Below, piece after piece: positions 1-61,388 of a DNA stretch of 64,000 nt. Both the position numbers and the translations under genes were made by a program. This stretch comes from Escherichia coli. GTDB lineage: Bacteria; Pseudomonadota; Gammaproteobacteria; Enterobacterales; Enterobacteriaceae. Where the stretch lies: NCBI RefSeq assembly GCF_009931435.1, contig NZ_CP043414.1. One strand, written 5' to 3'. Every line of letters begins with the position of its first letter. Position 1 is the stretch's first letter. Under the pieces are notes generated by a model. That model saw nothing but the letters and a program-made list of their open reading frames with translations. It was not told the origin of the DNA and ran no database searches.

Positions 1-309
1 GCACGCAATTACCCGCAGCGTCCGTCGCTTGCGCACTGTATGGTCTTCGCGGGCTACGTTGCGACGCCGCTGTTTTTAAGCGGTCTGGTGGCGCTTTACC
101 CGCTGGTCTGGTTGTGTGCGCTGGTCGGCACGGTGGCGCTGTTTTACACCGGCTACCTGCTTTACCTCGGTATTCCAAGCTTCCTGAATATCAACAAAGA
201 GGAAGGCCTTAGCTTCTCCAGTTCGACGCTGGCGATTGGCGTGCTGGTACTGGAAGTGCTGCTCGCCCTTACCGTTATACTATGGGGTTACGGTTATCGT
301 TTGTTCTAG
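1..309 (+). CDS. yohC: Inner membrane protein YohC, C-terminal part (5' end lies before the window)
   Basis: ORF 40..309 in frame 1 with no upstream stop in the window; hydrophobic multi-helix sequence; position next to pbpG matches K-12 synteny. Confidence 0.6.
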   Translation, partial: ARNYPQRPSLAHCMVFAGYVATPLFLSGLVALYPLVWLCALVGTVALFYTGYLLYLGIPSFLNINKEEGLSFSSSTLAIGVLVLEVLLALTVILWGYGYRLF

Positions 310-482
310 AAAGTTCTTTTGTGTTGCATTGCTGGCGTAAATGTCAGCAATGCAGCATTTCCTCACGATTCTCCTTTGACGATCGCACTTTTTGCTCGTT
401 ATGATGGCGTCGCTAGCCTCAGTAAATCCTTACTCCGGCGGTGCGCAACCCGTGCGCGTGAACCACTATCTGAATGCTCATC

Positions 483-1415
483 ATGCCGAAATTTCGAGTT
501 TCTTTATTTAGCCTGGCCCTGATGCTGGCTGTGCCTTTTGCACCACAGGCCGTTGCGAAAACGGCAGCCGCTACCACCGCTTCACAGCCGGAAATTGCCT
601 CCGGTAGCGCGATGATTGTTGATCTGAATACCAACAAAGTGATCTATTCGAACCACCCGGATTTGGTGCGTCCGATTGCGTCTATCAGTAAATTAATGAC
701 CGCGATGGTTGTGCTGGATGCACGATTGCCGCTGGATGAAAAACTGAAAGTGGATATCAGCCAGACGCCGGAGATGAAAGGGGTCTATTCGCGCGTACGA
801 CTGAACAGCGAAATCAGCCGTAAAGAGATGCTGTTGCTGGCGCTGATGTCTTCAGAAAACCGCGCGGCGGCAAGCCTTGCGCACCATTATCCCGGTGGTT
901 ACAAAGCCTTTATTAAGGCGATGAATGCGAAAGCGAAATCGCTCGGAATGAACAACACGCGCTTTGTTGAACCGACCGGATTGTCGGTGCATAACGTTTC
1001 AACTGCCCGTGACTTAACCAAACTGCTCATTGCCAGCAAACAATATCCGTTGATTGGTCAGTTAAGTACTACCAGGGAAGATATGGCAACCTTCTCTAAC
1101 CCGACGTATACGCTGCCGTTCCGCAATACTAACCATCTGGTGTATCGCGATAACTGGAATATTCAGTTAACCAAAACCGGCTTTACCAATGCGGCGGGCC
1201 ATTGTCTGGTGATGCGTACGGTTATCAATAATAAACCGGTGGCGCTGGTAGTGATGGATGCGTTTGGCAAATATACCCATTTTGCCGATGCCAGCCGCCT
1301 GCGTACCTGGATTGAAACCGGTAAAGTGATGCCTGTTCCGGCAGCAGCGTTGAGCTATAAAAAACAAAAAGCCGCCCAGATGGCGGCGGCGGGGCAGACG
1401 GCGCAGAACGATTAA
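483..1415 (+). CDS. pbpG: D-alanyl-D-alanine endopeptidase, penicillin-binding protein 7
   Basis: 313-aa ORF; internal start MPKFRVSL gives the 310-aa product with signal peptide; SxxK motif (SISK) and SxN motif (SEN) present. Confidence 0.9.
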
Positions 1416-1607
1416 GGGTAGGCAGGATAAGGCGTTTACGCCGCATCAGGCATTCGGAGCACAATGCCTGATGCGATGCTTGCGCATCTTATCAGGCCTA
1501 CAAACGTGACGCGTCCGTAGGCAGGATAAGGCGTTCACGCCGCATCCGGCATTCGGTGCACGATGCCTGATGCGATGCTTCTATTTGCATCAGACATCCA
1601 GCCGTAT
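1416..1607. repeat. REP/BIME cluster, at least two REP copies in opposite orientation
   Basis: Repeated gcaggataaggcgtt(t/c)acgccgcatc(a/c)ggcattcgg units and imperfect palindromes tgcctgatgcgatgctt in the pbpG-dld intergenic region. Confidence 0.7.
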
Positions 1608-3323
1608 TTACTCCACTTCCTGCCAGTTTTTCCGCTTACTGGTTTTACCGATCCCCGGATTCATGCTGTTGGTCGGATCGTTCTCGCGATAGAACTTCTG
1701 CAACGTCTCCGGTGCTTTATACAAATGACCGACGTTATGCTCGGCAGGGTATTGCGCGCCGCGCTGCTGTAGCAGTTCCAGCATCTGTTCTTTCAACGCA
1801 TGCACATCCACGCCTTTTTTAACGATGTAATCCTGATGGAAGACATAGCACATAAAATGGCCGTAATAGAGCTTGTGCACCAACTGACTGTCGATCTCCG
1901 GCGGTAAATGCTCATACCATTCGGTGTCGTTACGCCGCAGAGCGATATCCAGCGCCAGAATGTCTTCGACTTCATCGGAATGCACGGCCTGATAACGAAT
2001 TGCTGCGCCCGCAGCGGCGAAACGGTGTAAAAACGCTTTGCTGCCTTCCTCCGGCGTACAGACAAAGAAATCGCCCTCGGCCTGTTTGAAATAATCCACC
2101 AGCCACGATTTAGCTTCGCCGACGCCATCGCCCGCCATTTTTAACAGCAGATGATGTTCATATTTATCGCGCCAGCTTTTCATACGCGGTGGTAAATGGC
2201 TGGGGAACAGGTGACCGAATTTTTGCATCGCACGGTCGGTAAAATGCGGACGGAAGAATTTCACTTTCTCCAGCATCGCATCGGTGCGTCCCTTGAGATT
2301 AAAGAAGAACGGCATCTTGTCGGTGCCTAACTTATCAATCATCAGGAAGGTGTCTTTGCCGTATTTTTCCGCGATATCGTAGATATCCCGGTGCATATAT
2401 TCCCCGGCAACCGGCAGGTTCTCGAAATTAGCCAGGATATGGCGGCGGATTTCGGTCAGTACTTCCGGCTGGTTGGTGCCGATATAAAACACCTGCTGAT
2501 TTTTTTCTGCTTCGAAGGTATCAAGACGTACCGCAAAGACGGCCAGTTTACCGGCGCAACCGGAGGATTCAAACAGGCGATCCGGGTCGGCGTTATAACG
2601 TGCGGGTGTGTCGGCTTCAATATCACGAACGCGGTGGACATAGTCATAATCGTGGGCGTGACGACCATCGTGGCGCACATCGTCATCTTTGATGCGATCG
2701 TCATCCAGCTTGCTAAGGATCTGCTCCGGCGTTTCGCCGAGATCAATCCCCAGATGGTTCACCAGCGTCAGTTTGCCGTCTTCATTTATACGCGCGAATA
2801 ACGACATTTCGGTATACGCCGGGCCACGCTGCACCAGCGAGCCGCCGGAGTTGTTACAAATACCGCCGATGACCGATGCGCCTATACACGATGAGCCAAT
2901 CACCGAGTGCGGTTCGCGTCCCAGCGGTTTGAGGGCTTTTTCCAGCGAATAAAGCGTGGTGCCCGGATAGGCCAGCACCTGTTCGCCCTTGCCAAGAACG
3001 TGCAGCTTGTCGAGACGCAGGGTGCTGATGATCACGATATCGCGATCATAGTCGTTACCGTTTGGCGTCGAGCCTTCGGTCAGACCTGTATTGGCAGCCT
3101 GCATCAGAATAATTTTGTCGGCGGTGACGCAGGCTTTCAGCACCCGCCACAATTCCAGTAGTGAGCCAGGGAAAACGACAGCCAGCGCGTCGCCCTGACC
3201 AGAACGGAAGCCCTTGCGATAGCGGGCCGTTTTTGCGGGATCGGTGAGCAGGTGTGAATGACCGACCAGACGGGCAAGTTCATTCAAAAAGGCTTTATTA
3301 TCAGTTGTTGTCATGGAAGACAT
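1608..3323 (-). CDS. dld: FAD-dependent D-lactate dehydrogenase
   Basis: 582-aa ORF; internal start MSSMTTTDNKAFLNEL gives the 571-aa protein as I recall Dld. Confidence 0.9.
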   Translation of the reverse strand: MSSMTTTDNKAFLNELARLVGHSHLLTDPAKTARYRKGFRSGQGDALAVVFPGSLLELWRVLKACVTADKIILMQAANTGLTEGSTPNGNDYDRDIVIISTLRLDKLHVLGKGEQVLAYPGTTLYSLEKALKPLGREPHSVIGSSCIGASVIGGICNNSGGSLVQRGPAYTEMSLFARINEDGKLTLVNHLGIDLGETPEQILSKLDDDRIKDDDVRHDGRHAHDYDYVHRVRDIEADTPARYNADPDRLFESSGCAGKLAVFAVRLDTFEAEKNQQVFYIGTNQPEVLTEIRRHILANFENLPVAGEYMHRDIYDIAEKYGKDTFLMIDKLGTDKMPFFFNLKGRTDAMLEKVKFFRPHFTDRAMQKFGHLFPSHLPPRMKSWRDKYEHHLLLKMAGDGVGEAKSWLVDYFKQAEGDFFVCTPEEGSKAFLHRFAAAGAAIRYQAVHSDEVEDILALDIALRRNDTEWYEHLPPEIDSQLVHKLYYGHFMCYVFHQDYIVKKGVDVHALKEQMLELLQQRGAQYPAEHNVGHLYKAPETLQKFYRENDPTNSMNPGIGKTSKRKNWQEVE

Positions 3324-20975: not shown

Positions 20976-21094
20976 ATATTCATCCCTGAAATGTATTAAT
21001 GAAATAAAAGATATTTTACGCGCAATAAATGTTTGGCGCATTAGTTGTTTGAGCGGAAAATATCTGGAAAGCAGATCACAGTAAATAAAAAAAC

Positions 21095-21235
21095 CTGCTG
21101 GTGAGGCAGGTTCTTTTATTTACTACTTTCAGGCCTAACACCACGGCCTGTGCAACATCGTGTTCCAACGAACGAATTATAACCACCGCTGGACCCCGTT
21201 GCAATTAAGATAATGAGATTTATAATCCTGACAGT
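21095..21235 (-). ncRNA. orzO: Candidate OrzO antitoxin sRNA, copy 1 (boundaries approximate)
   Basis: On the minus strand the hairpin aacctgcctcaccagcaggtt is followed by a 7-T run, i.e. a terminator for a transcript running divergently from the zorO leader. Confidence 0.35.
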
Positions 21236-21497: not shown

Positions 21498-21704
21498 CGG
21501 GCAAATTGAAACGCATCTAAGGGGGAAAATACCGCTTCCCCCTTTAATAAAATGATTACTGTTTTTAATAATTCATCATATAACTCATTTTTATTTATAA
21601 ATTCATCGATTTTATATTCAACGCACCATTTGACCGGGATGTAAATATTTATGGTGGGCTATTGGCAAAAAATATCTGGAAAGTAGATCGCAGAAAATAA
21701 AAGA

Positions 21705-21845
21705 ACCTGCTGGTGAGGCAGGTTCTTTTATTTACTACAGTGACGCTAACTTGCTGATTGTGCAACATTTCGTACCAACGAATAAATTATAACCATATCC
21801 ACACTCCATTGCAATTCAGTGAATGAGATTTATAATCCTGCCCGT
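21705..21845 (-). ncRNA. orzO: Candidate OrzO antitoxin sRNA, copy 2 (boundaries approximate)
   Basis: Same minus-strand hairpin plus U-rich tract as copy 1. Confidence 0.3.
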
Positions 21846-43365: not shown

Positions 43366-43569
43366 ATACTCTCCACTTTGGGGATCTGTAATATCAGTCG
43401 CATATCTTTCCTGCCATACAATATAACTGACAAGCGATATTTTGTTAGTGATCCCATGATTTCGTAAAAAGTGTAAATGAAAGGATGCCCTAAAAGCATC
43501 CTTAGCGAGCAGAGAGCCAGCGGAAATAGCTGATTTAAGAATCATCCTGGGCTGAAGATAACATGCAGC

Positions 43570-44391
43570 CTATCGCATAATGCCCATAAAGCCATGCACG
43601 CCCATATACACCCCAACTAAGCCAATCAACAGACTGGAAAAATAGGGCGCACGTTTAGCGAGAGTGTTAAATCCGCTCCAGCGTTTTGCGACCTGCTGAA
43701 CGCTGATTGCTGCGCCAACGCCTACGGTGACCAGCGTTAACGCCAGGCCAATGCTGAAACTGACGACCAGTGTTGCGCCCAGTGTCAGGGCTTTCAACTG
43801 AATACAAATCAACAGCACGGTAATTGCTGCCGGGCAGGGGATCAGTCCACCTGTTAACCCAAACAATAAAATTTGCCAGTTGGTCACTTCTCTGCCATTG
43901 AAGCGTCGTTTGATGTCATTGGCATGGGCTCGTGCATGAGCATCCTGATACTCCCCATGTTCGTGATGGTGATGATGTCCATGGTCGTGGTGATCTTCGT
44001 GATCGTGATGATACTCATGATCATGCCCGTGCATATTCTCCAGCCAGTTGCGTTCGCCGCGCCAGGTACGCCAGAACATCCAGAACGCGGTGCCAATAAT
44101 GATCACCGCGGAAATCAACTGGAGCCACGGTTCTGCAGATTGAGCAGTAAAACGTTTGCTGATCACCATCCCGCCAAAGGCAATCAACCAGACCACCGCG
44201 GTATGCGAAAGGGTTGCTGCCAGTCCGAGCATCACCGCCTGTTTAATGGTGCCTTTGATGGCGATGATAAACGCCGCCATCATCGTTTTTGAGTGCCCTG
44301 GTTCCAGGCCATGAAGCGCACCAAGTAAGATGGCGCTGGGAATGAAGAACCAGGCGTTTCCTTGCTGAAGAAGAGTGGTAAATTCGGTCAT
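43570..44391 (-). CDS. rcnA: Nickel/cobalt efflux permease RcnA
   Basis: 273-aa membrane ORF with histidine-rich loop HGHDHEYHHDHEDHHDHGHHHHHEHGEYQDAHARAHA. Confidence 0.9.
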   Translation of the reverse strand: MTEFTTLLQQGNAWFFIPSAILLGALHGLEPGHSKTMMAAFIIAIKGTIKQAVMLGLAATLSHTAVVWLIAFGGMVISKRFTAQSAEPWLQLISAVIIIGTAFWMFWRTWRGERNWLENMHGHDHEYHHDHEDHHDHGHHHHHEHGEYQDAHARAHANDIKRRFNGREVTNWQILLFGLTGGLIPCPAAITVLLICIQLKALTLGATLVVSFSIGLALTLVTVGVGAAISVQQVAKRWSGFNTLAKRAPYFSSLLIGLVGVYMGVHGFMGIMR

Positions 44392-44428
44392 GATAATAAT
44401 TCTTAGTATTAATTCGGCAATCCGATTC

Positions 44429-44463
44429 TACTCCCCCCCAGTACCTGATACTACCCCCCAGTA
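44429..44463. promoter_or_regulatory. Two RcnR operator sites in the rcnA-rcnR divergent promoter region
   Basis: tactcccccccagta (44429..44443) and tactaccccccagta (44449..44463), each a TACT-G6-N-AGTA inverted repeat on the complementary strand. Confidence 0.8.
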
Positions 44464-44511
44464 GAATAATAGTGCTATGATTTTTCATGTTCTTGTTAAC
44501 CAGGTGTTGCC

Positions 44512-44784
44512 ATGTCTCATACAATCCGTGATAAACAGAAACTGAAAGCGCGTGCCAGTAAGATTCAGGGTCAGGTCGTGGCGCTCAAGAAAATGCTCGA
44601 CGAGCCGCACGAATGCGCAGCTGTTCTACAACAGATTGCTGCTATCCGTGGCGCGGTAAACGGTCTGATGCGGGAAGTGATTAAAGGTCATCTGACGGAA
44701 CACATCGTTCACCAGGGGGATGAGCTAAAACGTGAAGAAGATCTGGATGTCGTTCTGAAGGTGCTGGATTCATATATCAAATAA
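44512..44784 (+). CDS. rcnR: Ni/Co-responsive transcriptional repressor RcnR
   Basis: 90-aa ORF ([29 protein letters not shown]), CsoR/RcnR family. Confidence 0.9.
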
Positions 44785-44869: not shown

Positions 44870-45006
44870 TCGCAACCAAACGACTCGGGGTGCCCTTCTG
44901 CGTGAAGGCTGAGAAATACCCGTATCACCTGATCTGGATAATGCCAGCGTAGGGAAGTCACAGACCACCAGGTCATTGCTTCTTCACGTTATGGCAGGAG
45001 CAAACT
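44870..45006 (+). promoter_or_regulatory. Thiamine pyrophosphate (TPP) riboswitch in the thiM leader
   Basis: Canonical aptamer ggggtgcccttctgcgtgaaggctgagaaatacccgtatcacctgatctggataatgccagcgtagggaa, then an expression platform containing the ggcaggag Shine-Dalgarno sequence just before the thiM ATG. Confidence 0.9.
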
Positions 45007-61217: not shown

Positions 61218-61244
61218 AAAAAATAAGCCCGTGTAAGGGAGATT
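61218..61244. other. Unoccupied P2-type phage attachment core (attB) within the cyaR 3' end
   Basis: aaaaaataagcccgtgtaagggagatt matches the P2 att core as I recall it; no prophage genes are present between yegR and yegQ. Confidence 0.6.
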
Positions 61245-61304
61245 ACACAGGCTAAGGAGGTGGTTCCTGGTACAGCTAGCATTTTATGGGTTATGTTTTT
61301 CAGC
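61218..61304 (-). ncRNA. cyaR: Hfq-dependent, CRP-activated sRNA CyaR (RyeE)
   Basis: Minus-strand sequence gctgaaaaacataacccataaaatgctagctgtaccaggaaccacctccttagcctgtgtaatctcccttacacgggcttatttttt matches CyaR as I recall it, including the terminator hairpin and U-tail. Confidence 0.85.
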
Positions 61305-61388
61305 GAAACGGATGATAACCTTAATAAATGCAGCTGTATGTGATCGGTTTCTAAGAATTTTCCATCCGGGAAAAATAATCGAAATTAA

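Follow-up and report, generated by a model that had tools for sequence, protein, structure and literature searches.

Tandem G-tract repeats between the divergent rcnA and rcnR genes of Escherichia coli: the known RcnR operator, its conservation, and its range of unit number

Introduction

What do two neighboring cytosine runs, C7 and C6, do in the short gap between two divergent genes of an Escherichia coli chromosome? A preliminary description of a 64-kb stretch of DNA (64,000 nucleotides; hereafter the window) had read them as a pair of TACT-G6-N-AGTA inverted repeats, and had proposed that the pair is a metal-responsive repressor site in the divergent rcnA-rcnR region. A tandem TACT-G6-N-AGTA pair is the published operator of RcnR in strain K-12 (Iwig & Chivers 2009, as cited in PMC3902906, PMC7055735, and PMC7105576), and PMC7055735 cites Blaha et al. 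2011 (Biochimie 93:434) together with Iwig & Chivers 2009 for this operator. According to PMC3902906, one RcnR tetramer binds each site with minor-groove contacts at the TACT/AGTA arms, and the G-tract gives the DNA A-form character. For the Salmonella protein, PMC5709419 reports that binding to an rcnA-promoter probe was fitted to two tetramers per DNA. It also reports that loading with Zn(II) weakens DNA binding by RcnR by a factor of at least 90, the coupling energy being similar to that of Co(II)-RcnR. We found no operator details in PMC4528141 or PMC11672702. Here, we ask how well the window pair corresponds to this operator, how the two sites are placed relative to mapped transcription start sites, and how far sequence and unit number are maintained in other genomes.

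Results

We compared the genes on either side of the repeats to protein family models and to annotated genomes. Positions 44392..44511 are the exact 120-bp gap between two divergent open reading frames, and both repeats lie inside it. The minus-strand frame (43570..44391) is rcnA, the regulated gene, encoding a Ni/Co efflux pump; it matches NF007454, the NCBIfam model of the nickel/cobalt efflux transporter subfamily, with 554 bits (cutoff 195), and its product is 97% identical to K-12 RcnA (273 amino acids here, 274 in K-12). The plus-strand frame (44512..44784) is rcnR, encoding the Ni(II)/Co(II)-responsive repressor of the CsoR/RcnR family, with 197 bits to the NCBIfam equivalog NF011613 (cutoff 138). 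Its 90-amino acid translation contains His-3, Cys-35, His-60, and His-64, which we take to be the Ni/Co metal ligands of RcnR. Of 5426 complete E. coli genomes, 5319 contain the 120-bp intergenic sequence, which is 100% identical to that of strain 2013C-4282 and 97.5% identical to that of K-12. RefSeq names the flanking genes rcnA and rcnR in both strains, and 2013C-4282, identical over the 120-bp query, has the same RefSeq RcnR protein as K-12 (WP_000019944.1). The RefSeq neighbors are rcnB and yehA downstream of rcnA, and a TPP riboswitch, thiM, and thiD on the rcnR side. RefSeq annotation and NCBIfam matches together uphold the placement of the repeats in the rcnA-rcnR divergent region.

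Three further features of this neighborhood may be recorded. The His-rich loop of RcnA is encoded at 43957..44022 by an imperfect 9/18-nt tandem repeat; compared with K-12, it has a one-codon deletion and several substitutions, and its length differs widely among genera, as seen from split tblastn hits. The rcnB-rcnA spacer (43366..43569) measures 204 bp in the window versus 218 bp in 2013C-4282, which points either to a different strain or to a 14-bp indel at this place. The TPP riboswitch (Rfam RF00059, 71.5 bits) lies at 44876..44972 on the plus strand between rcnR and thiM, and is annotated by RefSeq as well.

We next describe the repeats themselves. On the plus strand, site 1 reads TACTCCCCCCCAGTA (44429..44443), corresponding to TACT-C7-AGTA, and site 2 reads TACTACCCCCCAGTA (44449..44463), corresponding to TACT-A-C6-AGTA, in the context GATTC TACTCCCCCCCAGTA CCTGA TACTACCCCCCAGTA GAATAA. 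It is the minus strand, the sense strand of rcnA, that shows the published form TACT-G6-N-AGTA. A search of the 64-kb window with the pattern TACTGGGGGGNAGTA returned two exact matches, both on the minus strand, namely TACTGGGGGGGAGTA at 44429..44443 (TACT-GGGGGG-G-AGTA) and TACTGGGGGGTAGTA at 44449..44463 (TACT-GGGGGG-T-AGTA), and no others even with up to two mismatches. Each site is the same as in K-12. Direct reading and pattern search show that the preliminary description had the form and coordinates of the two repeats right to the base, and the plus-strand forms account for the C7 and C6 runs, as it had claimed. A repeat finder reports the sites as a 15-nt direct repeat with a start-to-start spacing of 20 bp, in agreement with the spacing described earlier, for which "about two helical turns" is a fair wording; this period is set by the 5-bp spacer CCTGA (44444..44448). 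An outer 8-bp inverted repeat, ATTCTACT (44425..44432) and AGTAGAAT (44460..44467), is arranged around the site pair. Dinucleotide shuffles of the window gave a mean of 0.14 matches at up to two mismatches, with two matches reached in 1 of 100 shuffles, and an arithmetic estimate puts the chance expectation for two exact matches of 14 specified bases at ~5e-4 per window. These shuffle statistics, along with the cross-species alignment outlined below, exclude a chance origin of the repeats.

The window shares with K-12 the 35-bp operator core (two sites plus 5-bp spacer), the flanking genes, and the 120-bp intergenic length. It differs by single-base changes at positions 44423, 44466, and 44489, all of which are located outside the core. 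Through the change at 44466, the outer repeat ATTCTACT/AGTAGAAT is perfect in the window strain. The 43-bp unit contains nested dyads, in which AGTA and TACT form the inner pair. Such an arrangement could be taken to mean that the repeats work by folding into a cruciform, hairpin, G-quadruplex, or i-motif instead of binding a protein, and the single-stranded DNA indeed folds better than its shuffles (z = -4.2). The fold, however, is worth only -4.5 kcal/mol and contains two 7-nt internal loops, whereas a quadruplex would have to be built from two G-runs when an intramolecular one needs four. The C-tracts moreover are direct and not inverted repeats, and the literature assigns the sites to RcnR. 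We therefore regard a structural role of the DNA itself as extremely improbable, and treat the pair as a protein binding site below.

To define which parts of the intergenic region are maintained, we collected rcnR loci with an RcnR protein query, taking one genome per species. The resulting 80 loci come from Escherichia, Citrobacter, Salmonella, Raoultella, Kosakonia, Buttiauxella, Cedecea, Rahnella, Hafnia, Erwinia, Tatumella, Edwardsiella, Morganella, and one Vibrio. A divergent gene for RcnA is present in 79 loci, and the last one is truncated by a contig end; the sites accompany rcnR in 79 of 80 loci. Two strict TACT-N-C6-AGTA sites are present upstream of rcnR in 56 loci, spaced by 20 bp in 55 cases and by 21 bp in one; in a mismatch-scored scan, the loci outside these 56 mostly carry variant sites or another copy number. 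We then aligned 77 full rcnA-rcnR intergenic regions, from Enterobacterales and the one Vibrio, using MAFFT and without anchoring on the motif. The majority-base frequency is 0.99 in site 1 and 0.94 in site 2. It amounts to 0.88 in the ATTC flank, 0.68 in the GAAT flank, 0.65 in the spacer, 0.60 in the rcnA-proximal flank, and 0.48 in the rcnR 5' UTR. Within the intergenic region, near-invariance is confined to the two sites in these 77 loci, and even the "N" of the motif is fixed in each site across the alignment (on the minus strand, G for site 1 and T for site 2). A lack of conservation of the sites in rcnA promoters of the Enterobacteriaceae had been named in the preliminary description as one finding that would speak against an RcnR operator; we find them to be the best-conserved block in 77 loci, so that the interpretation withstands this check.

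Conservation within E. coli bears on a different reading, in which slipped-strand phase variation alters the length of the C7 and C6 runs and thereby switches the rcnA or rcnR promoter on and off. Length variants do occur: site 2 has C5 in E. coli 2014C-3051, the matching records span 118, 119, or 121 bp in several assemblies, and in four representatives of other species the run of site 1 is C6 or C8, or that of site 2 is C5 or C7. Homopolymer sequencing errors may, however, account for some of the rare 1-nt differences, and the 41-nt core at 44425..44465 is exact in 4836 of 5359 matching E. coli records, with 503 more being 95-99% identical, which falls short of hypervariability. C7 and A-C6 are retained across many genera, the opposite of what a contingency locus would show, and the conserved dyad arms on either side of the tracts are what one would look for in a protein site. 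We reject phase variation because the tract lengths are nearly fixed, and consider its probability negligible. As a separate observation, length differences of 1 or 2 nt in several complete E. coli assemblies may represent either real slippage or homopolymer errors of long-read sequencing.

We mapped transcription start sites (TSSs) from the genome-wide K-12 table of Kim et al. 2012 (PMC3415461, supplementary file 2) onto the window, which differs from K-12, the source of these TSSs, at 3 of 120 intergenic positions, including the rcnR +1 base. The major rcnA TSS (44418, minus strand; 25 reads) leaves a 5' UTR of 27 nt and places site 1 at -25..-11 and site 2 at -45..-31. A minor rcnA TSS (44439, minus strand; 12 reads; 5' UTR of 48 nt) is located inside site 1, with site 2 at -24..-10. 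The rcnR TSS (44489, plus strand; 11 reads; 5' UTR of 23 nt) has site 1 at -60..-46 and site 2 at -40..-26. Together, the two sites extend from -11 to -45 in the main rcnA promoter and from -26 to -60 in the rcnR promoter. The hexamer TAGAAT (44425..44430, minus strand) occupies -12..-7 relative to the major rcnA start and shares bases with the outer AGTA half of site 1; its position relative to the K-12 start suggests that it is the -10 element of the main rcnA promoter. By the same reasoning, TGcTATGAT (44473..44481, plus strand), which begins 9 bp downstream of site 2 and ends 8 nt upstream of the TSS, is the probable extended -10 element of rcnR. Of the 56 two-site loci, 42 have the motif TGnTAnnnT 9 bp downstream of site 2 and 3 more have it at 8 bp, and the corresponding columns of the 77-region alignment show a conservation of 0.79.

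Position 44489, the mapped +1 of rcnR, is a G in the window and an A in K-12. A generic sigma-70 scan proposed an rcnA -10 element ending at 44393 and an rcnR promoter running into the coding region; both were discarded, as they clash with the experimental TSSs. The long rcnA 5' UTR showed no structure beyond that of its shuffles (z = -0.24).

A fixed position relative to the rcnR promoter is also informative as to which protein binds the sites. The main binder could be another regulator, such as FrmR, the closest paralogue of RcnR (76 bits versus the FrmR model), or Fur, for which a box-like 14/19 match adjoins the rcnA start codon (44386..44410). Yet the Fur-like element is separate from the G-tract sites, being at least 19 bp away, the sites accompany rcnR in 79 of the 80 loci surveyed and lie at a fixed distance from the rcnR -10 element, and the literature names RcnR as the binder. 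A main binder other than RcnR thus appears very unlikely to us, if slightly less so than the structural and phase-variation readings. RcnR remains the protein to which we assign the sites.

The number of operator units, each of ~20 bp, is not the same in all genomes (loci L003, L052, L054-L056, L059-L061, L066, L067, L072, L075, L076, and L079-L083). Two units are found in most Enterobacterales, one or three in certain genera, and one in a few E. coli strains, giving intergenic length classes of ~100, 120, and 142 bp. In E. coli 97_3250 (97-3250), an exact 20-bp deletion leaves a single TACT-C7-AGTA; strains 90-3040 and 2013C-3492 match this single-unit allele over the full 100 bp in one piece, so that single-unit E. 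coli comprise at least three strains and at most ~14 records. Enterobacter sp. CC120223-11, Erwinia psidii, and Edwardsiella anguillarum (the one-unit species representatives L054, L075, and L076) have one site in intergenic regions of 100-102 bp, and the rcnR -10 element is still 8-9 bp from it. Morganella retains site 1 and a degenerate remnant of site 2. Three units are present in nine loci (six Kosakonia, one Phytobacter, and two metagenome-assembled genomes), where a third, weaker unit, AACT-C7-AGTT, is located 21 bp after site 2 in intergenic regions of 141-143 bp. In all unit-number variants, the site nearest the promoter is still at its usual distance from the rcnR -10 element. These comparisons describe the operator as what may be a copy-number-variable array of ~20-bp units. 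Unit count might possibly tune the Ni/Co response, be it through cooperativity, the set point, or the balance between rcnA and rcnR, a suggestion that we put forward tentatively.

A larger change is seen in E. whittamii Sa2BVA5 (L011), where the whole operator/promoter region and approximately the first 10 rcnA codons are missing. The deletion measures ~150 bp and lies between imperfect 12-bp direct repeats, CCAGGCGTTTCC and CCAGGTGTTGCC, both of which are present in the window, at 44350..44361 and 44500..44511, respectively. The regulated system may truly have been lost in this genome, or the gap may stem from the assembly.

Discussion

Our analysis makes it highly probable that the G-tract pair is a tandem type-1 operator of the Ni(II)/Co(II)-responsive RcnR, common to the divergent rcnA(B) and rcnR promoters. 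This assignment is based on sequence, gene context, conservation, and the positions of the sites relative to experimentally mapped TSSs. For RcnR binding, its stoichiometry, and metal-induced release, we rely on published work on the identical K-12 sequence and on Salmonella. The earlier proposal of a metal-responsive repressor site is borne out to this extent, as the identity of the genes holds and the 35-bp core is identical to that of K-12. The pair is an already known RcnR operator on an ordinary E. coli chromosome.

How would this operator act on two promoters at once? Metal-free RcnR tetramers would occupy both TACT-G6-N-AGTA sites, in the published account with one tetramer per site touching the TACT/AGTA repeats and with the unbroken G-tract being recognized by its shape. 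The 35-bp pair would then cover the main rcnA promoter from -10 to -35, including TAGAAT, as well as the rcnR -35 region and the sequence upstream of it. Because the sites cover both core promoters, bound RcnR would be expected to shut RNA polymerase out of both, and we infer steric promoter occlusion as the mode of repression. Iwig and Chivers, in their 2009 study, are said to have also described non-specific contacts of RcnR with the flanking DNA and wrapping of the DNA. Binding of Ni(II) or Co(II) to RcnR would lower its affinity for DNA, and its release would allow transcription of both the efflux pump and the repressor, resulting in negative autoregulation.

We compared the window pair to operators of related repressors. 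It belongs with the type 1 operators of the CsoR/RcnR (DUF156) family, which also includes the RcnR paralogue FrmR. Other members of the family respond to formaldehyde (FrmR), Cu(I) (CsoR), or persulfide (CstR), and their operators have arm sequences unlike those of RcnR, whereas the arms and the G6 tract in the window have the RcnR-specific form. Type 2 CsoR operators, for example those of Streptomyces lividans and B. subtilis, are likewise described in PMC3902906 as G-tract pseudopalindromes with GTA anchor dyads and A-form-like DNA. In these, 2-4 bases separate two short G/C tracts and each site takes up two tetramers, whereas the tract is unbroken in each window site, which in published accounts binds a single tetramer.

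For the understanding of this operator, little changes. It is a textbook metal-responsive site that has been characterized biochemically, and PMC7105576 describes its reuse as "rcnO" in synthetic cobalt-inducible circuits, where a foreign promoter gains RcnR- and Co-dependent control. What our analysis adds is a quantitative conservation footprint from ~77 species representatives, the placement of published transcription starts on both divergent promoters, and a natural range of one to three operator units. The unit variants could serve as a natural set for studying how tandem sites of the CsoR/RcnR family set repression strength.

A further conserved block, at 44386..44410, overlaps the rcnA start codon. 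Its consensus is CATGAGAATGATTCTTAG, which contains the palindrome AGAAT-N-ATTCT, and on either strand it agrees with the 19-bp Fur-box consensus at 14 of 19 positions, a score of at least 14 being reached at only 11 of ~128,000 window positions. As far as its letters go, the block could be a putative Fur site that links rcnA to iron, or it could be a translation-initiation signal; the latter is considered because rcnA is without an obvious Shine-Dalgarno sequence. Our search of the literature yielded no usable information on a Fur box at rcnA.

Elsewhere in the window, several RNA elements were recognized by their Rfam models. Two copies of the OrzO-P antitoxin sRNA (RF02083) are found on the minus strand, at 21087..21162 (98.9 bits) and 21699..21772 (87.3 bits), and imply a duplicated zor-orz type I toxin-antitoxin locus. 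Matches at the Rfam gathering score further include the CyaR sRNA (61221..61306, minus strand), the nucleoid-associated RNA naRNA4 (1421..1498, plus strand), and a Peptidase-S11 cis-regulatory motif (398..478, plus strand).
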